From contig OX597825.1 in the NCBI GenBank assembly GCA_951406725.2, positions 25,730,001-25,794,000 of the forward strand: a stretch of DNA of 64,000 nucleotides, written 5' to 3'. This document shows positions 8,101 through 61,950 of the stretch, piece after piece (the first letter of the stretch is position 1; each line of letters begins with the position of its first letter). Source of the stretch: Octopus vulgaris (Eukaryota). Made by a program: the position numbers and the translations under genes. The notes under the pieces were generated by a model that saw nothing but the letters and a program-made list of their open reading frames with translations, did not search any database and was not told where the DNA came from.

Positions 8101-8452
8101 CAACATAAATTATAGTTTCACCTTTATAGTCTAGACTGGTGCCATTTGGACTTCTTCAGATTCATCACCGTTTCATTTAAATGAGGACGTAAGCATTGCT
8201 ACATTGCAATGACTCTCAATAGTTGTATTCCATATTTAGAAGCTGTGTCAGTCGACATTGACCAACGCTTTGCAAGTGTTTAGGCCTGAGCAAGATTTAT
8301 TGAGTATGATTGATAGTGATCTATATATATATATATATATATAAAAACTTTTTTAAAACTATTTCTAATACTTAAAGAAAATCTCTCTCATATAGTGTTT
8401 GCTCAATTCAACTCACGAAAGTATGGGGGTAAAGACATTAAAAAATCAAATG

Positions 8453-8527
8453 CAAAGGTTATTTGAGAACGTACGTTTCAAGATTAGTCAAACTCGACAT
8501 TTCTATCATCAGCTCAGAACTCCTTGG
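8453..8527 (-). ncRNA. Type I hammerhead ribozyme-like motif (inverted copy)
   Basis: Reverse complement of the motif at 8963-9037. Confidence 0.6.
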
Positions 8528-8962
8528 TTTGGATTTGAAAACACTGAAAGTGGGAGCATACCCTTTCGGCTTCTTATCGCTTCTGAAGATCTGCTCGAAA
8601 CTAACAGTGCCAGCACACCCAAAATATGCAAGCGAAGAATTTCTGCTCTCCCCTTTCCACCAGCGTGGGTTAAAATCAGTAAACACTATGCTTTTTCGGT
8701 AAATCCGAAACATTAAATAGAGAGAGATGAATTATAATTTCAACAATTGAGGGTAAAATTAATTAATTATTAATCAATGTTTCGGATTTACCGAAAAAGC
8801 ATAGTGTTTACTGATTTTAACCCACGCTGGTGGAAAGGGGAGAGCAGAAATTCTTCGCTTGCATATTTTGGGTGTGCTGGCACTGTTAGTTTCGAGCAGA
8901 TCTTCAGAAGCGATAAGAAGCCGAAAGGGTATGCTCCCACTTTCAGTGTTTTCAAATCCAAA

Positions 8963-9037
8963 CCAAGGAGTTCTGAGCTGATGATAGAAATGTCGAGTTT
9001 GACTAATCTTGAAACGTACGTTCTCAAATAACCTTTG
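8963..9037 (+). ncRNA. Type I hammerhead ribozyme-like motif
   Basis: UGAG-CUGAUGA(8978-8984)-stem II (AGA..GUCG/UGAC..UCU)-GAAA(9011-9014)-CGUACG-UU-CUCA; stem I UGAG/CUCA extended by AAGG/CCUU; predicted cleavage after 9022. Confidence 0.65.
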
Positions 9038-9526
9038 CATTTGATTTTTTAATGTCTTTACCCCCATACTTTCGTGAGTTGAATTGAGCAAACACTATAT
9101 GAGAGAGATTTTCTTTAAGTATTAGAAATAGTTTTAAAAAAGTTTTTTTAGCTACTATTTCTAATGAGTTCAGTATGTGGCAAAGTAATTTATTTTACTA
9201 AGCCCTTTTATATAATGTAATAATTTAAATTCGCCTTAAATGGTCCCTTTACATACTGAACACTTGGTGAAATTGATTAATAATTAATTAATTAATTTTA
9301 CCCTCAATTGTTGAAATTATAATTCATCTCTCTCTATTTAATGTTTCGGATTTACCGAAAAAGCATAGTGTTTACTGATTTTAACCCACGCTGGTGGAAA
9401 GGGGAGAGCAGAAATTCTTCGCTTGCATATTTTGGGTGTGCTGGCACTGTTAGTTTCGAGCAGATCTTCAGAAGCGATAAGAAGCCGAAAGGGTATGCTC
9501 CCACTTTCAGTGTTTTCAAATCCAAA

Positions 9527-9601
9527 CCAAGGAGTTCTGAGCTGATGATAGAAATGTCGAGTTTGACTAATCTTGAAACGTACGTTCTCAAATAACCTTT
9601 G
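9527..9601 (+). ncRNA. Type I hammerhead ribozyme-like motif (second tandem copy)
   Basis: CUGAUGA 9542-9548, GAAA 9575-9578; identical to 8963-9037. Confidence 0.65.
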
Positions 9602-9878
9602 CATTTGATTTTTTAATGTCTTTACCCCCATACTTTCGTGAGTTGGAATTGAGCAAACACTATATGAGAGAGATTTTCTTTAAGTATTAGAAATAGTTTT
9701 AAAAAAGTTTTTTTAGCTACTATTTCTAATGAGTTCAGTATGTGGCAAAGTAATTTATTTTACTAAGCCCTTTTATATAATGTAATAATTTAAATTCGCC
9801 TTAAATGGTCCCTTTACATACTGAACACTTAGTGAAATTGATTAATAATTAATTAATTAATTTTACCCTCAATTGTTG

Positions 9879-9920
<42 letters not shown>

Positions 9921-9965
9921 TATTCACATAGAAATACAATAAGAGGCTTCCAAATAGGAAAGCCT

Positions 9966-10292
9966 TGTTTCAGTCATGTGACTGTGGGCATGCTGGAGCA
10001 CCGCCTAGTACTTATTCTATCTGTCTCTTTTGCTGAACCGCTAAGTTACGGGGACGTAAACATACCAGCATCGGATGTTGGAGGGGACAAACACAGACAC
10101 ACAAACATATACACACGCATATATATATATATATACATACATACGACGGGCTTCTTTCAGTTTCCGTCTACCAAATCCACTCACAAGTCTTTGGTAGGCT
10201 CGAGGCTATAGTAGAAAACACTCGCCCAAGGCACCACGTAGTGGGACTGAACCCGGAAGCAAGCTACTTACCACACAGTCATTCCTATGCCT
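9966..10292 (-). mobile_element. SINE family A
   Basis: Reverse complement of family A with its internal TA/TG microsatellite. Confidence 0.85.
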
Positions 10293-11498: not shown

Positions 11499-11916
11499 TG
11501 GCGCAGGAATGACTGTGTGGTAAGTGGCTTGCTTACCAACCACATGGTTGCGGGTTCATTCCCATTGCGTGGCACCTTGGGCAAGTGTCTTCTACTATAG
11601 CCTTGGGCCGACCAAAGCCTTGTGAGTGGATTTGGTAGAGGAAACTGAAAGAAGCCCGTCGTATATATGTATATATATATACATATGTGTGTGTGTATAT
11701 GTTTGTGTGTGTGTGTGTTTGTCCCGACAATATCGCTTGACAATCGATGCTGGTGGGTTTACGTCCCTGTAACCTAGCGGTTCGGCAAAAGAGCCCGATA
11801 GGATAAGTACTATGCTTACAAAGAATAAGTCCTGGGTTCGATTTGCTCGACTAAAGGCGGTGCTCTAGCATGGCCGCAGTCAAATGACTGAAAACAGCAA
11901 AAGAGTAAAAGAGTAA
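11499..11916 (+). mobile_element. SINE family A, full length
   Basis: tRNA-like head GGCGCAGGA.TG.CTGTGTGGTAAG...GGGTTCA.TCCC, internal TA/TG repeat, tail ending AAAAGAGTAAAAGAG. Confidence 0.9.
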
Positions 11917-14497: not shown

Positions 14498-14561
<64 letters not shown>

Positions 14562-14562
<1 letters not shown>

Positions 14563-14770
14563 TTACTCTTTTACTTGTTTCAGTCATTTGACTGCGGCCA
14601 TGCTGGAGCACCACCTTTAATCGAGCAACTCGACCCCGGGACTTATTCTTTTTGTAAGCCCAGTACTTATTCTATCGGTCTCTTTTGCCGAACCGCTAAG
14701 TAACGGGGACATAAACACACCAGCATCGGTTGTCAAGCAATGCTAGGGGGATAAACACAGACACACAAAG

Positions 14771-14801
<31 letters not shown>

Positions 14802-14958
14802 CATATATACGACGGGCTTCTTTCAGTTTCCGTCTACCAAATCCACTCACAAGGCATTGGTCGGCCCGGGGCTATAGCAGAAGACACTTGCCCAAGATGC
14901 CACGCAGTGGGACTGAACCCGGAACCATGTGGTTGTTTAGCAAGTCACTCCTGCGCCT
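14562..14958 (-). mobile_element. SINE family A, full length (a further partial copy follows at ~15003-15150)
   Basis: Close match to 25229-25632. Confidence 0.9.
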
Positions 14959-16293
14959 ATATATATATCTATATCTATATCTTTTATCTTTTACTCCTTT
15001 TACTCTGGGTCACCGTTTTGGAGAATATTTTAGTCGAATAAATCAACCCCAGTACTTATTTTAAAAAGCCTAGAACTTTTCCTATCAATCCATTTTGCTG
15101 AACCGCTAGGTTGTGGGGACGTTAACACAGACTCAAACACACATACACACAAATATATATTTCTCTTTTCAAAGAAAGTATTTCTTTCAGCGTTCACTAT
15201 CTTTCCCCTCGTTCTGGTCTAACGACCTTCCATGTTCGTTTTCGTTCGGTTTCCTCGTATGTCTCCACTGTCCTGTTTTTGTTCCGATCTTTGACCCTCC
15301 ATAAAATCCAATTGTTATTGCTTATTTGAAACATTTTCTCGAATGGCTTTAACTCTTTTTTTTGTAAAAAAATTCTCTTTCCACGTTTCTTACATCTTCC
15401 AGTGAACACCAGTCTCCGGAAAGGTGAACTCTTTAGTCGATTGAATATTTTTGTTACCTGAACGATGTCTTGTTGCGTTGCATGAAACAGTGCAGTCAGT
15501 GAGTGAATGAATAATAAGCTTCGAAGGAGTGAAGTATACTGCCTGTGTTGAAAACAAATAGAGAAATGACTTGAAGTCTTATAAATATTTCAGGCGATTT
15601 ACTCATCTTTAGAGGCAAACATTCAAACAACTATTTGAGACTGCAAGGTCACACTCTGACATACAATAATCCTGTTTGTTTTTCTTCTGTAGAAGGGTGT
15701 GCACTTCGAAACATATGGGACTTATAAAATATTAATTCTCTCTTTGCATTGTACGAATCTCTCGGGGAAATTTCTACTTTCCATTTCCTTCAATATAATA
15801 AATACGTCAAGAAATATATAACTCCCTACTTACAAGCATTGATTTATTATTTTCCCATTTTTAATGTATTCCAAAATACGCTGTCACATTTTTAAAGGTT
15901 TTAGTCACAAGACTGCCGTCCACCTGGACGGTCATCTTCAGATGTTTTCACTTTATCATACTGATCACAGTACTTAGTTCAATCAGGCACAAATTTCAAC
16001 AATTGGTTAACATACCGTTTACCTTTTACTTATTTAAGACACAGGTGCGATTCCATGACAGGGCATCGACTTAAAGAAGTTTATTGAAACAAATCAATCC
16101 CAGAATTTATTTTAAGTCTAGTACATACTTAATCGGGCGTTTTGCCGAAATGCTAAGTTGGGAGATGTAAAAAATCAAGTGGTGTACAAGGAACAAACTC
16201 AAACACAAAAATGCACACACATATACATATATCATAGGATCCCACATATCATCCGGCTTCAAAATTCATATATCTATACAGGAGTACATATAT

Positions 16294-21487: not shown

Positions 21488-23223
21488 GATCCAGGCTCGT
21501 CAATCCATGCAATGAATCAAACAAAGCCGTCTCAAAATACAGACAATAAAGTGATATAAAAGCGAGGTATTAGTAAATCACATATCATATTAAAACGATT
21601 GTCTTTCTTCAGCTACAGGAAGTAAGCGCCGATCTAAAATAAAAAAAAACAACAACTCAGAAAGAAAGAAAGAAAGAAATCAACAGAGCCTCATGAATCA
21701 AAGGCCTGTTCTCCACAACCCTGATCATCATCTTACAAAAATAAACGCTTGCCTCTGAAGTAAGTACGTGCAATTTCTTTGTCGAATTAAGCACGACAGG
21801 GCAGCATTTGTTTTCCTCTAGACTTACTTGTAATCTTTTTGTAATTCGTCCATCGATTTCTTGCTTGCTATACGAATTGTGACAACCCCAACGGTAAGTT
21901 TGGACTAGGTGGAGTACTGTATAAAGATGGTAAAATATATATCATTTCTACTCGTGCTTCGACTTTTGTCGCAGTTATTGCCCGACCGTTTTTGAGCGTC
22001 TTCTCTTTCGCTTTAGGTGGAAAATATGCGAACTATTTTTATGCAGTCCTCCTAGTCTCTTTGATTATGCCTCGTGATACATTGGATAATAATCCGGTAA
22101 AACAAATCTAGTTACAATAGGGTTAAGAGTAAATCATGTTTAGTCAAAAGTGTTCAATTTTCAAGATTGTTTTCATACATGTATTCAAGGCAAAACAAAA
22201 GACTGGGAGATTATATATATAAATGGTAAGCTCAATGTTTGAATCAATGATAGGCGGGGTAGCAGAGAAAGGAAAAGAGGGAAAAGTGAAACCAAAAAGT
22301 AAAAAACAGAAAGACAAGAAAAAGTGGGAATACAAATGGAGTTGTAAAAATGGCAGTTACTCGATAAAAAAAGATTCTAAGACAGGGAAGAGGAGTTTGA
22401 GTTGAAATTATTATAGAACACCCGCTCAGAAAAAAAACTAGTTATACAGGATAATAGTTCATTCCCTATAGCTGTTTCCAACGAGATTTTAAGGATGAAT
22501 AGAGATATTACACCGTGCCAAAAAATTAAATCGTTTTCATCAGGGGAATATACACGAATTATACATCTAAAAAATACCGATGAAAACGGTATAGTCATCA
22601 ATAAAAAATTCCGTCGGAAAAAGCTGTAGTGAATTAACTATTATCCATCTGATGTTATTTATTTATTATTCTCCTTACTCAGAACCTGTTATTAGCATGG
22701 CTCTGGAGTCTTTTAAGTGCAGTACAATTGGTGCATTGTGTTTTGCTAAATACACCCTGGAGACTCATAATATACTCAACCAGGTGCAGTTAATCGTATA
22801 TGGAACTGGAAAAATAATATGTCTGGACTTCGATATTCGTTTCTCTGATTTTGAATTGTACACGATTTCCTTTTTTTGACTCGAGTCGGTGCTTTACCAT
22901 TTAAGCACCTGATTCACATGAGTCTTGAACTTTCTACACACATACACATGATGGTGATACATACATATGTATATACATACATATATGCATACATACACAC
23001 ACAGTGACAATCTGGAAAAATTAGTGTTTTCAAATAACAATTATCCAGTTAATAATCTGTAATGGAATCTATAAGCGGAAGAGTAAAAACGTGCAAGACT
23101 TTTCTTAAATACAAAATTTGTATTTTTTTTTTGTTTGTTGTCTATATTTCAACGATGGAATCGTTGGTAGAAATCAATGCCTTCCTTACAGGAAGAATCC
23201 AATTCAATATAGAAAACAGTGTA

Positions 23224-25228: not shown

Positions 25229-25632
25229 CTCTTTTACTCTTTTACTTGTTTCAGTCAGTTGACTACGGCCATGCTGGAGCATCGCCTTTAGTCGAGCAAC
25301 TCGACCCCGGGACTTATTCGTTGTAAGCCCAGTACTTATTCTATCAGTCTCTTTTGCCGAACCGCTAAGCGACGGGGACATAAACACACCAGCATCGGTT
25401 GTCAAGCAATGCTAGGAGGACAAAACACAGACACACAAACATACACGCACACATATATATACATATATACGACGGGCTTCTTTCAGTTTCCGTCTACCAA
25501 ATCCACTCACAAGGCTTTGGTCGGCCCCAGGCTATAGTAGAAGACACTTGCCCAAGATGCCACGCAGTGGGACTGAACCCGAACCATGTGGTTGGTATGC
25601 AAGCTACTTACCACACAGCCACTCCTGCGCCT
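25229..25632 (-). mobile_element. SINE family A, full length
   Basis: Complete head to tail on the minus strand. Confidence 0.9.
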
Positions 25633-36599: not shown

Positions 36600-39410
36600 T
36601 TCACAGCTCCTACTCAACAGCATCATTAATAATTACACCAAAGCTTAGCCACAAATGTATAACGAAATTAAATTAGATAAAATAATAGAGGTTCTTCCAA
36701 TAAAAAGACACCTTTATAAGTATTAAAGAACATAAAAATAACTTCCTGTCTAATCCTAAATGTAGACTTATTAACCCAGCTAAATCAGAAATCTGTAGTA
36801 TTAGTTAGTGGAGGCGCAATGGCCCAGTGGTTAGGGCAGCGGACTCGCGGTCATAGGATCGCGGTTTCGATTCCCATACCGGGCGTTGTGAGTGTTTATT
36901 GAGCGAAAACACCTAAAGCTCCACGATGCTCCGGCAGGGGATGGTGGTGATCCCTGCTGTACTCTTTCACCACAACTTTCTCTCATTCTTACTTCCTGTT
37001 TCTGTTGTACCTGTATTTCAAAGGGCCGGCCTTGTCACTCTCTGTGTCACGCTGAATATCCCCGAGAACTACGTTAAGGGTACACGTGTCTGTGGAGTGC
37101 TCAGTCACTTACACGTTAATTTCACGGGCAGGCTGTTCTGTTGATTCGGATCAACCGGAACCCTTGTCGTCGTAACCGACGGAGTGCATCCATTAAGTAT
37201 TAGTTAAGAAACTTTAGGAAAAATCAATGCGAAAGTCAGAAATGCTACTAGGTTAGTAAAATGCTCCAATAGTATAGAAATCGTTGATTGGTTTAAATCC
37301 ATTAGGAATAAGAATAAATTGAGATATACACAATTCGATATTGTCGATTTCTATGCCTCTATCGCTAAGGAACTGCTAGATAAAGCGCTCACCTTCGCAA
37401 GCGAATTTATAGAAGTTTGTACACAAGATAAGGACATAGTCTTCCATGCTAGAAAGACGTTACTCTTCAGCGAGAACACAGAGTGGGTCAAGACTATCGA
37501 TGATACAGAGGGTGCTTTCGATGTGAGCATGGGGTCATATGATGGAGCAGGCATATGCGATCTCATTGGAGTATTCTTACTCGATGCGTTGGGCAATACT
37601 TTTCCTGACGTATATTTCGCCATTTACAAAGATGATACCCTGCCCTAGCTTTAACCACAAATACCAATGGACCAGCACAAGATCGGTGAAAATGATGAAA
37701 ACGTTTGGTTTTAGCATAATTACAGATACCAACCTGACGGTTGTCAATTTCTTGGATGTATCCTCAGATTTAAACAATAATATTTACAAGCCTTATAGGG
37801 ATTCCAACGATAGAATTAGTTATATAGGTTCCTCTCATCTCCCTATAGTGTTTAAAAATTTATTTAAAGACATTATCAAAAGAATTTCTTGCCTCCCCTC
37901 CGATAGGGACATTTTTAATAGTGTTGCCTCAGTATATAATAATTCTCTAAAAGATAGTGGATTTAGCGAGGAAATAACCTATACATATGTTACCAGTTCA
38001 ATAATAAAGAAAAAGAAACACAGGAATAGGAAAACTATCTGGTTCACAGCCCCTTATTCCACCGAAGTTACCTTTAATATAGGTTAAATATTTCTTAGCA
38101 CTTATAGATAGACATTTTCCAATTAATCATAGTTACAGAAAGCTCTTCAATAGACATAACTTAAAAATCAGTTTTAGGTCAACTACTAATTTTAAAAATA
38201 TAATCGCACACAATACACAAAAACAACAGAATGAAACCAGGTGTTCATGCAAGGATAAAAAATTGAGCCCGCTAAATAGAGCTTGCATGAGCGAGACCAT
38301 CATTTATGAAGCCACCGTAGACTCAACAACCACTAAGGACATAGTTTCGTCAAGGTAATATGTGGGTCTCTCAGAGGGGAACTTTAAAGCCAGGTTCAGC
38401 AATCACTCCTTGAGCTTCAGACACTGGGATAAAAGAAAAACAATCAAATTATCCAGTGATATATAGTGCTTAAAAGAAAAAGGTGTTAATTACAACATCC
38501 ATTGGGAGATCTTAGCCAAGTGTAAGCCTTACACCGACGGCATTGGAAAGTGCAGTCTTTGTGAAATGGAAAGATGGCTCATCTGGAAAAGCAGCTTAGA
38601 CCCCGCTACATGTCTAAATTCAAGAACTGAACTTTTTGGGTCATGTCCGCATATTGCTAAATATTTGTTACGTTTTTGATTCCCCCAAAGACCACAGATA
38701 GAACCTGAATTTTATTTTGTGTCCACTTACAAGCATTTTATCTTTATATATTTTGTATATATACTTTTTACATATTTTTATATCTATTTTTACATATTTT
38801 TTCTGTATATTACATTTCACCCTGCATTTTTCTTGTGCATGTGCATATATAGATGTGTATATGAACATATTTGTGCGCACATGGGCATAAATACGTGTGT
38901 GTGTGTATGTGCGTTTGTGCGAGTATGTATATGTTTACATGTGTATGGTTGCGTATATATGTGGATGTACATGCATGTGTTTCACGCGAGTGTGAGTGAG
39001 CATATGCATACATAGCATGTGCATTTTCTCCTAACGCGAGAAAATTCATTCTTGCCTGTGGAACCTACCATGTTTATAGAAACACGAGTTTCTGCCGCTC
39101 TAGGTCTCTGGATAAGCCGCCATTGTCCAGACACCAGCCAGGTTCACAGCCTTCTTCAACCAATCGTCGCCCGTTTACTTCCTTGCAGCAACAGACTGCC
39201 GACCACAGCCACGCCATCAGATCCAGCAGAAGTGAAGTCATTTGAATCTTTGTTGCTGACTGTAGTATGAACATCATTCCTTTTGGCAATCTTCTATTAT
39301 AAATATTATTATATTATAAATTAATATAAGAGGAATAAATCGTCGCTTTTTCAACATTCAAATCTTATTGTTCTTTTTTCAACACCATGTCATTATAATT
39401 AGTGACCTAC
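36600..39410 (+). mobile_element. Penelope-like retroelement (Naiad-type RT plus C-terminal GIY-YIG), pseudogenised
   Basis: KEHKNNFLSNPKCRLINPAKSEI; QFDIVDFYASI; FDVSMGSYDGAGICDLIG; IYKDD; VNFLDV; IWFTAPYS; GIY-YIG region IIYEA...YVGLSEGNFKARFSNH...CSLCEME...LNSRTELFGSCPH; many stops/frameshifts; coding ends ~38680; 3' boundary approximate. Confidence 0.88.
36808..37195 (+). mobile_element. SINE family C inserted in the Penelope RT, with 11-bp TSD
   Basis: TSD AGTATTAGTTA at 36797-36807 and 37196-37206. Confidence 0.92.
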
Positions 39411-43202: not shown

Positions 43203-43243
<41 letters not shown>

Positions 43244-43333
43244 TTTGTTGGCACTGTTAGTTACGAGCAGATCTTCGAAAGCGATGAGAAGCCGAAAGGG
43301 TATGCTCTCACTTTCAGTGTTTTCAAATCCAAA

Positions 43334-43408
43334 CCAAGGAGTTTCTGAGCTGATGATAGAAGTGTCGTGTTGACTAATCTTGAAACGTACGTTCTCAAAT
43401 AACCTTTG
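43334..43408 (+). ncRNA. Type I hammerhead ribozyme-like motif
   Basis: CUGAUGA 43350-43356, GAAA 43382-43385, then CGUACGUU-CUCA; core identical to locus 1, with differences only in the stem II region and distal stem I. Confidence 0.65.
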
Positions 43409-43891
43409 CATTTGATTTTTTGATGTCTTTACCCCCAAACTTTCGTGAGTTGAGTTGAGCAAGCACTATATGAGAGAGGTTTTCTTTAAGTATTAGAAAT
43501 AGTTTTAAAAGTTTTTTAGCTGCTATTTCTAATGAGTTCAGTATGCGGCAAAGTAATTTATTTTACTAAGCCCTTTTATATAATGTAATAATTTGAATTC
43601 GCCTTAAATGTTCCCTTTGCATACTGAACACTTGGTGAAATTGATTAATAATTAATTAATTTTACCCTCAATTGTTGAAATTATAATTAATCTCCCTCTA
43701 ATTAATGCTTCGGATTTTACCGAAATAAGTATAGTGTTTGCTGATTTTAACCCACGCTGGTGGAAAGGGGAGAACAGAAATTCTTCGCTTGCATATTTGA
43801 GTTTGTTGGCACTGTTAGTTACGAGCAGATCTTCGAAAGCGATGAGAAGCCGAAAGGGTATGCTCTCACTTTCAATGTTTTCAAATCCAAA

Positions 43892-43966
43892 CCAAGGAGT
43901 TTCTGAGCTGATGATAGAAGTATCGTGTTGACTAATCTTGAAACGTACGTTCTCAAATAACCTTTG
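43892..43966 (+). ncRNA. Type I hammerhead ribozyme-like motif
   Basis: CUGAUGA 43908-43914, GAAA 43940-43943; one G>A change weakens stem II. Confidence 0.55.
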
Positions 43967-44123
43967 CATTTGATTTTTTGATGTCTTTAATTTAGCAATT
44001 CGGCAAAAAGAGCGATAGAATAAGTACTAGACTTACAAAGAATATAAATCCTGGTGACGATTTGATCGACTGAATGTATTGCTACAGCATAGCCGTAGTC
44101 AGATGACTGAAACAAGTAAAGAA

Positions 44124-51179: not shown

Positions 51180-51757
51180 AAGGCGGCGAGCTGGCAGAGA
51201 CAGTAGCCCGCCGGGAAAAATGGTTAGCAGTATTTCGTCTGCCGCTACGTTCTGAGTTCAAATTCCGCCGAGGTCGACTTTGCCTTTCATCCTTTCGCGG
51301 TCGATTAAATAAGTACATGTTACGCACATGGGTCGATATAATCGACTTAATCCGTTTGTGTGTCCTTGTTTGTCCCCTCTGTGTTTAGCCCCTTGTGGGT
51401 AGTAAAGAAATAGGTATTTCGTCTGCCGGTACGTTCTGAGTTCAAATTCCGCCGAGGTCGATTTTGCCTTTCATCATTTCGCAGTCGATTAAATAATTAC
51501 CAGTTATGCACTTGGGTCGATATAATAGACTTAATCCGTTTGTGTGTCCTTGTCTGTCCCCTCTGTGTTTAGCCTCTTGTGGGTAGTAAAGAAATAGGTA
51601 TTCCTAAGTTCAAATTCCGCCGAGGTTGACTTTGCCTTTCATCCATTCGGGGTCGATAAATTAAGAACCAGTTACGCACTGGGGTCGATGTAATCGACTT
51701 AATCCCTTTGTTTGTCTCCTCTATGTTTATCCCCTAGTGGGCAATAAAGAAATAAGA
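51180..51757 (+). mobile_element. SINE family B concatemer: one head plus three ~184-bp bodies
   Basis: Body restarts (GTATT) at 51230, 51414 and 51598 after the tail AAAGAAATAG. Confidence 0.88.
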
Positions 51758-53169
51758 ACAACCTTCATCACTGGCACTGGCAGTCAGGGACGACCTAATA
51801 CTGAAGCTGAGCAACAACAATAAGTGTAACATGTTTTTTTGAAGTAATATACCTAAGCGAACAAAATCTCATGTGTTGTCTATTATCAACCATGCTTATA
51901 GCATCACACATGCAATTGAAACTATCATAATCAAGGTAATCAATTGTCACAGTTTCCGATCAATCTTAGTGAATGCACGTAATACTTCGCCATTGCGACG
52001 ACAACACTAAGAGCAAAGACGTTGTGCTTGACATCAGCAATTCTTTAAGGTTGAGTCCCGTGAACAATTCAAATATAAATTTCCCAGCTATAAACTAAAT
52101 ATAGCAGCGCATTTCTTGAATACATACATTTCTAGCAGACAGACATTTTTCCATAAATAGGCTATACACAAATAACTGTCAAACGCTACATAATGTATGC
52201 AACACAATATTTGAATATCTCTAATGGCAACATCATTTAAGTAACGTTATAAAAACTGCATCAGATAAGCGTGTATGTATGCGTGTGTATACATGTTTTT
52301 GCCAATCTATGTATGTATGTATGTATGTATATATGCATATATACAGAAGCAAAATATGTTCCATACATAATATTAACACAGGAATATGTTCGCATGTCTA
52401 CATACTTATACGCACATATGCAATAAAAATATAGAAATATATAGTTTCGTTACTAAAAGCTTGTTGCAATAACAAATTCAGGTATGAAATACATACGAAC
52501 ATACACATACGCATACGTCTACACAAAGCTTTTAAATTTTTTTATACTGAAAGTCAGTAGAATTAAATAGTATGTTGAACATTTGCCGATTGCATTTTAA
52601 GATTATTATTAAAGTAAGGCCAAGTATTTTATGATCTGCTTTGAGCAGACATTACAACAATTTTTTTTACCGATTTAATGTTTTCAAATAATCGCTGTGT
52701 AACAGAAACTGTGAATGCATGATTAAGAAACAGTGTGAAAGAATAAATATCCAAAGAGAAATTAGAAGCCGAAAACGTCAGTGAGACTGCGTCATGGAAG
52801 ATCACTTATTCTGATAGAATCTCGGTTTTAATATGTTATGGTGACAAAATAAAACATTTTTGTTCGGATAAAGCGTTTCACAATAATTTCGTCTCTAATA
52901 AATGATATCTTGTAAAATACAAAATAATATTATTTATCGGAAAAATACCTTTGTGGAATTTAGTTACACCAGTTTATGTTTAGAGTTTGAATCCGGAAAC
53001 AACAATTAACATTCCGGTGGAGCCCTAATCGATTTTAGAATAAAATCCTGAAATGGAAGTAATTATTGATGGTTTCATCACTATATCGTTCGTCGTTATA
53101 AATCAACACACTATAATTCATATCGAGAATTTCTCCTTCATATCTTTCCAACAATAAATCTACCATTCC

Positions 53170-54699: not shown

Positions 54700-55008
54700 T
54701 TCCTTTCTACTCTACGTACAACGCAACTGTTACTTAATTTATCGACCCCAAAAGGATGAAAACGTAAAGACAGACGAAATACCTATTTCTTTACTACCCA
54801 CAAGGGGCTAAACACAGAGGGGACAAACAAGGACACACAAACGGATTAAGTCGATTATATCGACCCCAATGCGTAACTGGTACTTATTTAATCGACGCCG
54901 AAAGGATGAAAGGCAAAGTCGACCTCGGCGGAATTTGAACTCAGACCGTAACCTCAGACTACGCATTTCGCCCGGCGTTCTAACGTTTCTGCCAGCTCGC
55001 CGCCTTTG
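54700..55008 (-). mobile_element. SINE family B dimer
   Basis: Full copy followed by the same tail-to-internal junction as at 51.4 kb (plus strand AGACGAAATACCTATTTCTTTACTACCC, ~54772-54799). Confidence 0.85.
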
Positions 55009-57775
55009 GGTTTATGAAATATTGAATAATGTATTTCTGAGTCAAAAACTGTTAAATCAGTACATGTAAATACATTCATGAAATAGCATTTTTCAAAAGT
55101 ACACAAATGTTTATAACAAGCATAGCCGCGAAACCACCAGCCGTAAAACATATTCTACATTTATGTGTGGTATATTTATATATTATTACCAAATGCTTCA
55201 AGGCAATATCAGAAATATAAACTTTTTCCCCTCATATTCAAATGAGTGTGAACACTATAATATCTTGTTTACCGACAATGGGGTATATCTGTTTACATTA
55301 AAAATCTATCTTCAGCGAAATATTAAATCAGTTTGGCAGCGTGGTGGTTTCAACAGCCGTTTATGATGTTTTAAAAATTGGACTTCCATTGAAGTAGCTA
55401 GAAAATCGTTCAAGTCTTCTACATGCTATTTGAACTTAAAGATGTTTACAATGAACCGAAACAATCGAAGGAGATCAAAATAAAATTCAGAAATCTCATA
55501 ATTAGTATTGATTAAGGGAATACTCTACAACGAAGACCCTCCTTATCGCTAGTAACTTAGCAGCAAAACCTACTTACATTTAAAGAGAGTAAAGATACCT
55601 GCATTTATTTGGAAAATTGATAAATTAAACATCAATAACTGTTGTCTACTTGCGAAAGGAGCTGTATTCATCATATAGAATTATTTCTGAATTCTGTCTG
55701 ATTTTATTATCCGACGATTGGATTACATCAGTTGCTAGTACTATACTGTGTTTATCAGGATATTCAAGACAATATCGAAAATAAAGTTATCTTTATGTTA
55801 TCACATTCATCAAGTATGAAGTTTAAAGTTTTCATTAATATGATTTGCATTTAAAACATAGAAGAAATAAAGAAAACATAATCCGTTATGAAATATTTTA
55901 TTTTTAAAAAATGTGGTACATATTGTTCTTGCATAAAAGATATCAGCACACTGAAGCTCTAACTTATCGTTCTACCTATCAAAAACATCCAAATATCTCT
56001 CAGATCACTCACTACACACTCATATAAAGAGACGATATATCAGATAATTCAGTTATGGGTAACTCTAAACAGGTTTTATTGTTCTTGTTAGGAAGCTTTC
56101 AATTATAAATTGTTCATTACAGCGAAACAAAAAATGAAAGAAAATGTAGCATTGAAATTCTGAGAATTTAAAGCAATTTACTCCGCCAGCCGTAGCGTTT
56201 TAATTTACTCTGATAAAGCATTTGCAAAATGTAAACAAATAACATCCTCCACTAATCCACGTTCTTTGAAGTAAAAATAAAAACGATTATGACAGGTATT
56301 GCTGTTATTCATTACAATTACATGTAGAATAACTAAATGTTTGTCCTTACCCATTCTTTAAGCACGAAGTGTAGAGAGCTGGTGAGAATCCCATCGTTTA
56401 TTTTCTGTTCGTATTTTAGTTTCCCTTCCTGCATGTCATTGTAAAGACGTTTATAAAAATATTCCATTTTAATGTCTAATAAATTACCCTGTAGTATGTA
56501 TTTAATGAAGGAGAAGCCTTTTTAATCTTCCAAGCAAATATTTTACTATTTCTCTTTCTCTTATCTAAAAGAAATACAAAATGAATGAAGAAAAAAAATA
56601 ACAATAAAAGAGAAAAGAAAATGTTTTATCATATTCAGCAAATTCTAAATCTTATTTGAAGAAAAAATATACCAAAAAAAAAACACCCCGAAAAATCTTG
56701 TGTAATATTATTTTCCATGTTGTGAAACACTAACTAAAAATATTTTAAAAGAATCCTCAAGAAGATTATATTGATGCGCTAAAAGCAACAAGAATTCCTA
56801 TAACTGCTTACAACAGCAACACACACTAAAAAAGAAAATGAATGACGAATTTTACGTATATATGTTTATAATTACTGCAGAATGGTTAAGGCATCAGATG
56901 AAATGTCTTGCGGTATTTGTTTTGGGTTTTAAATTCTGAGTTCAAATCTTAAAGAAGTCGTTTTTGCCGTAAATTCTTCGAGAATTGATTAAAAATACTA
57001 ATGAAGTACTAAAGACAATTTAACCCATTATCCCTTTCCCCAAATTTGTGCAAATGTATGTATCTCTGTTGAAAGATGTTAATTAAGACTGGATTGGTGC
57101 AATCGTAAGAGCGTGTCGCAAGCTGACTCTGAGAAACTGAAAGTTAACCGAATTAGCTAGAAAACTGTGTAAATCTTTAACTTAAAATTCGGTGATAAAG
57201 GAATTTACAGGCAAATTGAACATTAGAAGCTACGTCGAAATGAAATTTAAACTTAATTTCACAAATAATAAAATATTGATGCAGGAATTGCTGGAATAAA
57301 ATTCATTCGAACCAGAAAGAGCTTCGTTTATGTAAGAAACTTAGTTTATAGGAAGTTGATGGCAAACTGTGTTCCATCTGTTCCAACTCTTTTCATTCTG
57401 GGTTAAAATCCTGTCGAGATCAACTTAGCCTTTCATTCCTCCAAGATCGAAAAATTAAAGGACTAATCAAGTAGTTGATTAGCTTAAATAGGCAACGGCC
57501 TGATGACCTGGCACTAAATTTCGGAGGATAATTGGTGCTGAATTGGCTAAGTCATTACAATGTTGGAATAAAACGTTATTTGATTTTTCTTCTGGTTCAT
57601 TTCGTTTCCAGTTCATATTTCACAGTCGTCCTTTGGAAGCCGACAAATGGAAGCAATAGAAAAGTGCTGGAGTCAATATAAACATATTATGCTTCGAATG
57701 AAATTATAATTGTGCCTAAAATGTGAAAAAGTATTGCAGAATCATCATAACAGGAGACAAAAAATGTTGCATACA

Positions 57776-61028: not shown

Positions 61029-61950
61029 AAGGTGGCAAGCTGGCAGAATCATTGGCACGCTGCTCAAAATACCTAGCGGCATTTCGTTATCTTACGCTGT
61101 GGGTTCGAATTCTACTGTGGTCGACTTTACATTTCATCCTTCCGAAATCGATAAAATAAGCGCCGGTTGAGAAACAGGGGCCGGTGAAATCGACTTGCTC
61201 CCTCCCTCTAAATTACTGGCCTTGTTCCGCAATTTGAAATCAATATTTTACGTCCGTTATAGAACCGTGACCTGACAGAATAGTTAGCACGCCGGCAAAA
61301 ATGGTTGGCGGCATTTTTCCCGTAATTACATTCTAAGTTCAAATTTCACCGAAGTCGACTTTGCTTTTCATCCTTTCGGGGTCGAGAAAATAAGTACCAG
61401 CTGAACGCTAGAGTCGATGAAATCGACTTACCCATCCAGCGAAATTGCTGGCCCAGCGCCAAAATAAGAAACCAGTATTATATTTCCCTGGCAGAATCGG
61501 TAGCACGCTGGGCGAAATGCTGAGCGGTATTTCGTCTGCCGCTACGTTCTGAGTTCAAATTCCGCCGAGGTCGACTTTGCCTTTCATCCTTTCGGGGTCG
61601 ATTAAATAAGTACCAGTTACGCACTGGGGTCGAATTATCGACTTAACCCGTTTGTCTGTCCTTATTTGTCCTCTCTGTGTTTAGCCCCTTGTGAGTAGTA
61701 AAGAAATAAGTATTATATTTCCCTTATAAGGCAACGAACTGGCAGAATTGTTAGCAAGCCGGACTAAATGCTTAGCGACGTTTTGTCCGTCTTTACGTTC
61801 TGTTGCGGTCGATTCTGCTGAGATTGATTTTGTCTTTCATCCTTTCGGTGTCGATAAAATGAGTACCAGCTGAGCACTGGTGTCGACGTAATAAACATAC
61901 CCCTACCCCCGAAATTACTAGTCTTGCGTCAACATTCGAAACTAAAATCA
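61029..61950 (+). mobile_element. Head-to-tail cluster of four family B SINEs
   Basis: Copies at ~61029-61245, 61258-61478, 61488-61708 and 61728-61950; the third has TSD AGTATTATATTTCCCT (61474-61489 / 61709-61724). Confidence 0.88.

Follow-up and report, generated by a model that had tools for sequence, protein, structure and literature searches.

Introduction

Animal non-LTR retrozymes are tandem non-coding units with one type I hammerhead ribozyme each, a low GC content, a monomer predicted to be self-paired and co-occurring Penelope-like elements (PLEs) (PMC7229834; 10.64898/2026.07.22.740005). In the preprint 10.64898/2026.07.22.740005, retrozyme consensus lengths span 51-972 bp (the mean for ray-finned fishes is 650 bp), and a PLE origin is given for retrozymes; 21 PLE matches are reported among 57 Xenopus retrozyme families, and no mollusc was sampled. 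EN+ PLEs are found as partial tandems with an inverted 5'-truncated copy and a one-end tail, prefer (TA)n, and have two internal initiation sites (PMC8557442, PMC3846280, PMC11167929); the tail is often at one end only (PMC8557442). In vitro, the PLE protein of Anolis Poseidon cleaves AT-rich DNA on both strands and extends each of them; initiation takes place at two internal positions of the RNA, which delimit the tail, and the protein has been modelled as a dimer. Hammerhead cleavage was not needed for insertion, and the start sites did not differ between strands (PMC11167929). Such systems bear on two questions, how retrozymes enter new sites and how the inverted repeats and tails of PLEs arise.

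Here we describe a 564-bp repeat of Octopus vulgaris that shares all of these retrozyme features, and that shares with EN+ PLEs the partial tandems, the inverted 5'-truncated copy, the one-end tail, the (TA)n preference and the two internal initiation sites. It differs from EN+ PLEs in having no ORF, and a tail of about 100 nt rather than 30-40 nt. Neither its head-to-head arms nor its fixed, paired ends are described in the available portions of the two retrozyme studies. A family that is short, young and non-coding, with over a thousand hammerhead copies, gives a clean readout of where copying starts.

Results

A tandem 564-bp unit inserted head-to-head in (TA)n

The window is a stretch of 64,000 nt (contig OX597825.1 of assembly GCA_951406725.2, positions 25,730,001 to 25,794,000, forward strand). 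At 8344-9882 it contains an insertion inside (TA)n, made of an inverted 435-bp arm and 1.96 tandem copies of a 564-bp unit arranged head-to-head (Table 1). An earlier note on this DNA had described a tandem unit with an inverted partial copy and flanking (TA)n, which the sequence and self-BLAST bear out: the two copies of the plus arm lie 564 bp apart and are 99.5% identical across 548 aligned bp, and the minus arm is the reverse complement of 9272-9715 at 98.6% identity. Tandem Repeats Finder, with its period limit of 500, misses the unit. Unit positions are counted from the predicted cleavage site, with position 1 at 9023.

Each unit carries one hammerhead-like motif, as the note had said, with predicted cleavage after 9022 and 9586, and a third motif lies on the minus strand. 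The sole minus-strand match in the element is the inverted arm's copy, so the hammerhead is present in one polarity only; the suggestion of a viroid-like RNA is not supported. The diverged homolog that had been noticed elsewhere in the window is real, and belongs to an older subfamily (92.8% identical, 1.34 units of 558 bp); it has two hammerhead sites, after 43393 and 43951, its 5' end adjoins (TA)n, and its 3' end has been replaced by another repeat. The statement that no ORF is conserved also stands: of 75 copies examined, only 16 keep the 84-aa plus-strand ORF of the unit intact, and this ORF gave no Pfam match. The unit has no RT and GIY-YIG ORF, and neither of the two PLE proteins described below (781 and 862 aa) matches the insertion.

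Elsewhere in the window, 36716-38667 is a degraded piece of a PLE that is unrelated to the retrozyme and shares 27-36% identity with the 862-aa protein. Two abundant SINE-like repeat families also have many copies in the window.

Table 1. Features of the insertion and of related or neighbouring repeats in the window
Feature	Positions	Strand	Basis
(TA)n target, left remnant	8322..8343	.	sequence
Inverted arm, unit positions 250-564 then 1-~125	8344..8778	-	self-BLAST
Hammerhead motif of inverted arm, predicted cleavage at 8468	8454..8526	-	motif scan
Head-to-head junction, 3-nt overlap of the arms (microhomology)	8776..8778	.	
Forward arm ending at site A; 1.96 tandem units with 5' truncation at unit position 318	8776..9882	+	
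Type I hammerhead 1, predicted cleavage after 9022	8964..9036	+	motif, covariation
564-nt monomer predicted from double cleavage; 33% GC; predicted highly self-paired	9023..9586	+	
Conserved stem around hairpin B (9179-9204) and AU-rich loop with site B (about 9205-9220)	9169..9260	+	
Conserved hairpin A (to 9302), then site A (about 9315-9317)	9265..9317	+	
Type I hammerhead 2, predicted cleavage after 9586	9528..9600	+	motif scan
Conserved stem with hairpin B, second copy	9734-9825	+	
Hairpin A and site A, second copy	9830-9882	+	
3' end of insertion at site A, adjoining (TA)n	9870..9882	+	
(TA)n target, right remnant	9883..9920	.	
Older-subfamily copy, 1.34 units of 558 bp, 92.8% identical	43241..43989	+	
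SINE-like repeats (two families)	51180-51760, 54720-55010, 61030-61940; 9960-10290, 11500-11915, 14500-14990, 25230-25630		

A predicted hammerhead and its downstream hairpin module

Hammerhead 1 consists of CUGAUGA at 8978, a stem II with a basal U-U, GAAA and a GUU site, and its stem III is 1-2 bp long with a palindromic GUAC loop. CUGAUGA, a stem II, GAAA, the GUAC loop and the GUU site recur in every unit. The 1-bp stem III with a palindromic tetraloop resembles axolotl HHR_Amex1, and the basal U-U of stem II resembles HHR_Amex2 (PMC7229834). Rfam gave 0 matches at gathering score over the window, so the ribozyme call relies on the core motif and on covariation; 12 sub-threshold Rfam matches, mostly hairpin-driven hits of miRNA-precursor models on the palindromic junction, were rejected as unrelated. 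With nine natural copies from four families, RNAalifold recovered stems I and II unprompted, together with the downstream module. Changes on both sides were seen in 23 of 60 pairs, and 96.3% of cells pair, as against 37-50% in slid alignments; no shuffle reached the observed level. The nine copies are relatives of one another and also the source of the structure, so the covariation is supportive and should not be read as a probability. It suggests that the ribozyme stems and the downstream hairpin module keep their pairing through compensatory changes across the four families. Among the copies compared, each of the four bases occurs at core position 7, whereas only GUU, GUA and GUC, and never GUG, serve as the predicted cleavage triplet.

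Folding predictions bear on how such a hammerhead might act. In the monomer the hammerhead fold is predicted at -1.4 kcal/mol, versus -10.2 kcal/mol for an alternative hairpin, and in the predicted circle it costs 3.9 kcal/mol above the minimum; the monomer is strongly self-paired (z -6.8 linear and about -5.9 circular, 30 shuffles). A duplex of two palindromic loop-3 loops is predicted at -11.6 kcal/mol. Hammerheads with a palindromic helix III act as dimers (PMC4209133), and a dimer-active design has been described for axolotl retrozymes (PMC7229834); the loop-loop pairing of the predicted unit hammerhead is of the same design. Self-cleavage of the hammerhead is a prediction. The features that we count against activity are the basal U-U pair in stem II, the GUU site and a predicted monomer fold other than the hammerhead, and eight of nine predicted retrozymes tested in another study did not cleave (10.64898/2026.07.22.740005).

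An abundant, young family with three siblings

The unit query returned 1,656 candidates genome-wide, of which 40 were scored, with identities of up to 99-100%. The exact hammerhead pattern has 696+691 = 1,387 matches in the genome against 0+0 for a reversed control, and is therefore not a chance occurrence. A variant hammerhead pattern gave 475+480 matches (control, 2+2), with eight of the first 100 looking unrelated, and the hairpin-A pattern gave 2,510+2,503 = 5,013 (control, 0+0). The 564-bp repeat is abundant, young and non-coding. The family is also present in assembled contigs of four sequencing runs with two organism labels, runs whose RNA nature is a guess. Within the literature searched, which left repeat libraries and supplements outside its scope, we found no description of the 564-bp family or of the counted end rule reported below, and neither 'retrozyme' nor 'ribozyme' occurs in the main text of a study of octopus repeats (PMC13282606).

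Three sibling families, with units of 562-602 bp, were found beside PLE loci. One aligns with the unit over the whole of its own 562-bp unit at 65%, another has a 602-bp period, and all three carry a hammerhead with different stems. At first look the siblings (L115-L144, L145-L174, L225-L228) have about 1,600-2,060 candidates each.

Insertions end at two different fixed sites

We examined 53 loci: that of the window, 39 others among the 40 scored, and 13 distinct new loci out of 30 found by the hammerhead pattern, after overlaps and repeats among the 30 had been dropped. Thirty-nine are two-armed, with the arms head-to-head and the tails outward, and 14 are single-armed or complex. The 3' ends fall either at site A, at about unit positions 293-295 after hairpin A, or at site B, at about 186-205 after hairpin B and ~100 nt upstream of site A. 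Classed by their two ends, the two-armed loci comprise 33 A/B, 5 A+other, 1 B+other, 0 A/A and 0 B/B. The window's locus is A+other, an exception to the A/B pattern, since the outer end of its inverted arm is at neither site. When L032 is dropped for having the same flanks as L031, and an A/A locus found later (L229) is added, there remain 33 independent two-armed insertions in which each end lies at a fixed site, and 32 of these are A/B (p = 4e-9 versus independent choice). The single A/A exception, L229, belongs to an older subfamily. The two ends of an insertion are therefore almost always fixed, each at a site of its own. In the sibling families 15/16 and 12/16 rows are A/B and none is A/A, in counts where B/B is hard to see because the queries contained site A, and where some rows are segmental duplicates.

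Inserted copies are flanked by (TA)n, inside which target-site duplications are unreadable, and the junction overlaps between arms are mostly 1-6 nt. Three single-armed copies in a chromosome-order sample, and others besides (L183, L184), end at B without an A arm. The earlier note had named fixed termini, such as terminal inverted repeats, as a finding that would count against a retrozyme; fixed 3' ends do exist, but they are PLE-type initiation sites rather than terminal inverted repeats. L031 and L032 have their central parts inverted relative to each other, which is consistent with recombination between inverted arms after insertion.

The template: probably a circle or an uncleaved multimer

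Rare variants were common to all copies over both arms in 38 cases, to some copies in 11, and private to one copy in 119. Divergence in the young set is 0.5% within an arm, 1.3% across arms and 1.9% between loci, and in the chromosome-order set it is 0.4%, 0.6% and 6.2%, respectively. Similarity between arms may come in part from gene conversion. The arms run through the cleavage site, and the longest extends for 7,654 nt, up to about 14 units. Of 78 5' starts, a single one is found 10 nt or less from the cleavage site, against 2.8 expected, so the pile-up of 5' ends that a linear monomer template would produce was not seen among these 78 starts. The long arms together with the lack of such a pile-up rule out a cleaved linear monomer as the template. 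The data fit either a circle or an uncleaved multimer as the template of both arms, and we regard the choice between these as evenly poised.

One 14-unit array (L035:1456-9032) has several variants that recur in scattered units or in every third unit, pointing to exchange between units or to a higher-order template.

PLE families in the same genome

The search for an autonomous partner covered about 95 PLE or hammerhead loci out of thousands (6,136 and 15,887 candidates). The unit was compared with GIY-YIG loci in sets of 25 + 20 and then 20 more, and with Hydra-type stretches in sets of 17 + 5. In none of the 45+20 GIY-YIG, eight solo-hammerhead and 22 Hydra-type loci did the unit's module form the 3' end of a PLE ORF. 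Matches to the module in L077, L112 and L209, considered as PLE 3' ends, were rejected as separate insertions, and 60 sibling-family loci, compared with the 781-aa protein only, yielded no partner. Among the eight solo hammerheads, that of L231 is part of a Hydra-type PLE, while the remaining seven come from repeats unrelated to the unit.

The genome holds at least two young intact PLE families. The first (L095-L110) has an intact 781-aa ORF in many copies, with an RT as well as GIY-YIG at the C terminus, and a linker that fits Neptune or Nematis by the motif given in PMC8557442; its 3' end is unrelated to the 564-bp unit. In these loci the ORF is also overlapped by an upstream frame, up to 479 codons long, and the 3' region has several tandem minimal hammerhead-like motifs in which U takes the place of C3. 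The second (L238) has an 862-aa ORF with the Hydra motifs DKT and CxCX5C and no CCHH, as judged by eye, the clade being assigned from these motifs and not from a tree; a Pfam search does not recognise the protein. L238, L255 and their relatives are very abundant (the 15,887 candidates above), with an asparagine-rich 862-aa ORF and a 3' UTR that may measure a few hundred bases or exceed 3 kb, and their hammerheads keep the core and the palindromic loop with a freely varying stem II.

The Hydra-type family resembles the unit in its layout. Its terminus is a hammerhead whose tetraloop is palindromic, it has two ends in (TA)n, and all five of the two-armed fragments seen (5/5) are A/B. Its module (L238) is 196 nt long, and the two ends lie about 75-85 nt from each other; no sequence similarity to the module of the unit can be detected, the two being no more similar than shuffles (z -0.4). 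The family represents the Hydra-clade PLEs (PMC8557442), which we propose as a candidate partner clade.

Discussion

On genomic criteria the 564-bp unit is a non-LTR retrozyme, as the earlier note had proposed: it has tandem type I hammerheads in a closed tandem unit, 33% GC, no protein and no LTRs. The note had also called it unusually large, which the range of 51-972 bp in 10.64898/2026.07.22.740005 does not support; given those sizes and the PLE origin argued there, neither the size of the unit nor its link to PLEs is new. Mobilisation by PLEs, which the note had taken from work on animal retrozymes, is supported by the (TA)n target, the inverted 5'-truncated copy and the one-sided tail, and the part that was not recovered is the partner itself, absent from about 95 loci. 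We consider it very probable that the unit is a non-autonomous retrozyme mobilised by a borrowed PLE RT-endonuclease. It is not a new class of element; the added value lies in the counted A/B insertion rule.

Our explanation as a whole, which we think likely, is of a non-LTR retrozyme inserted in (TA)n as head-to-head arms primed at two fixed sites. Tandem copies would be transcribed, and two hammerheads of one transcript would pair through their palindromic loops and cleave. This would release a 564-nt monomer to be circularised by a host ligase, the monomer alone being predicted to fold with its ribozyme off. A PLE protein, probably a dimer, would bind the conserved module and cut both strands of (TA)n, and cDNA would be primed from both DNA ends, at site A 3' of hairpin A on one and at site B 3' of hairpin B on the other, about 100 nt apart. 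Each polymerase would travel a different length, at most some 14 units, along an RNA that is either circular or an uncleaved multimer, and the two cDNAs would be joined head-to-head through a few bases of microhomology; where one arm failed, a single 5'-truncated arm adjoining (TA)n would result. The A/B rule, the private variants shared by the arms and the passage of arms through the cleavage site fit two-ended target-primed reverse transcription of one RNA, and for the priming step at A and B, taken by itself, we judge the balance to be favourable. Against the explanation as a whole we count the autonomous partner not found in the sampled loci, the A/A locus L229, the left end of the window's insertion, the hammerhead features listed above, and the in vitro insertion that did without hammerhead cleavage and showed no strand difference in start sites (PMC11167929). 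Gene conversion is another possible source of the shared variants: the units of L035 show a mosaic of exchanges, and the centre flipped after insertion in L031/L032.

The main rival to two-ended priming has only one priming event, after which the inverted arm would be made by fold-back or template switching onto the new cDNA, or by self-priming on antisense RNA; endonuclease resolution at site B would then set where the second end falls. It too predicts variants common to both arms, and 3/33 A/B loci are perfect palindromes without a spacer. PMC3846280 reads head-to-head palindromes as self-priming, and PMC8557442 ascribes the one-sided tail to endonuclease resolution. Fold-back should however place the 5' starts of the two arms close together, whereas their offsets spread from -228 to +258 nt and are zero in only 3/33. 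The B arm is the longer one in 11/33 loci, a point weakened by post-insertion flips. The single arms that end at B with no A arm suggest that B is a priming site in its own right, and both ends of the tail map as initiation sites in PMC11167929. Fold-back therefore seems to us improbable, though it deserves more weight than the readings that follow.

A different reading would make the unit a mere pseudo-LTR (pLTR) of an autonomous PLE, its arrays by-products of tandem insertion and its hammerhead a servant of the parent. Retrozymes and pLTRs are related in frogs (10.64898/2026.07.22.740005), our PLE sample is small against 6,136 and 15,887 candidates, and PLE copies are mostly 5'-truncated, all of which speak for it. 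Yet the hammerhead recurs within 265 nt after site A, which leaves no room for an ORF, in arrays that reach about 14 units; the same closed unit is retained in sibling families of about 65% identity (562 bp over its whole length in one, a 602-bp period in another), and neither of the young intact PLE families sampled has a related 3' end. We hold this reading to be quite unlikely. Least credible of all is a fold-back or MITE-like DNA transposon, or a satellite spread by recombination, in which the hammerhead is incidental. The arms do resemble long inverted repeats and some long arrays, such as L035, show exchange between units, but the ends differ (A versus B), the centre is variable and 5'-truncated, and the single-armed or complex loci (14/53) do not suit it. 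The hammerhead covaries across families, and the layout of partial tandem, inverted truncated copy and one-sided tail is the PLE pattern (PMC8557442). A MITE or other DNA transposon with terminal inverted repeats was rejected, since identical inverted termini and a fixed interior are absent and the junction varies; the asymmetric ends largely refute the DNA-transposon and satellite readings.

Within two-ended priming, a more specific version can be put forward tentatively, and we think it rather less probable than not. A PLE dimer would hold one 564-nt circle by its two hairpins, at fixed sites 100 nt apart, and prime from both ends of the (TA)n double-strand cut; each subunit would then roll round the circle before the head-to-head joining. 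With both primers on one circle, strand displacement would presumably be needed. If this rolling-circle version were true, the inverted repeats and one-sided tails of PLEs would be explained in one step, retrozyme circles would be true transposition intermediates, and retrozymes could be long-kept free RNA parasites without a sequence-related parent element. Two fixed start sites, one per end and each just 3' of a conserved hairpin, are a clue to how copying likely proceeds. With a 300-nt RNA module now defined, and intact PLEs of two families in the same genome, two-ended priming and a circular template become directly testable.

Other described elements differ from the unit in instructive ways. 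The pairing of one A with one B was counted here in 32/33 insertions, whereas Poseidon in vitro showed no strand difference (PMC11167929). Unlike the Xenopus families that have PLE matches (21/57; 10.64898/2026.07.22.740005), the unit matched no autonomous PLE pLTR in the roughly 95 loci sampled. Chlamys elements such as MRC1 are likewise non-autonomous PLEs with multicopy head-to-tail insertions, but their 3' ends are generally similar to that of the autonomous partner, and their clade has no canonical hammerheads (PMC8557442).

Hammerhead motifs outside the 564-bp family take several other forms. In the L225 sibling the site is GUC, and stem III is of another kind, closed by a 3-nt loop; these features may permit monomer cleavage. 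An old family (L230, L232-L234, L236, L237) consists of short head-to-head elements with a hammerhead-like motif, a variable stem II and no (TA)n flanks. In the window itself, the minus strand has at 22467-22543 a solitary hammerhead-like motif that belongs to another family and whose stem II is long.
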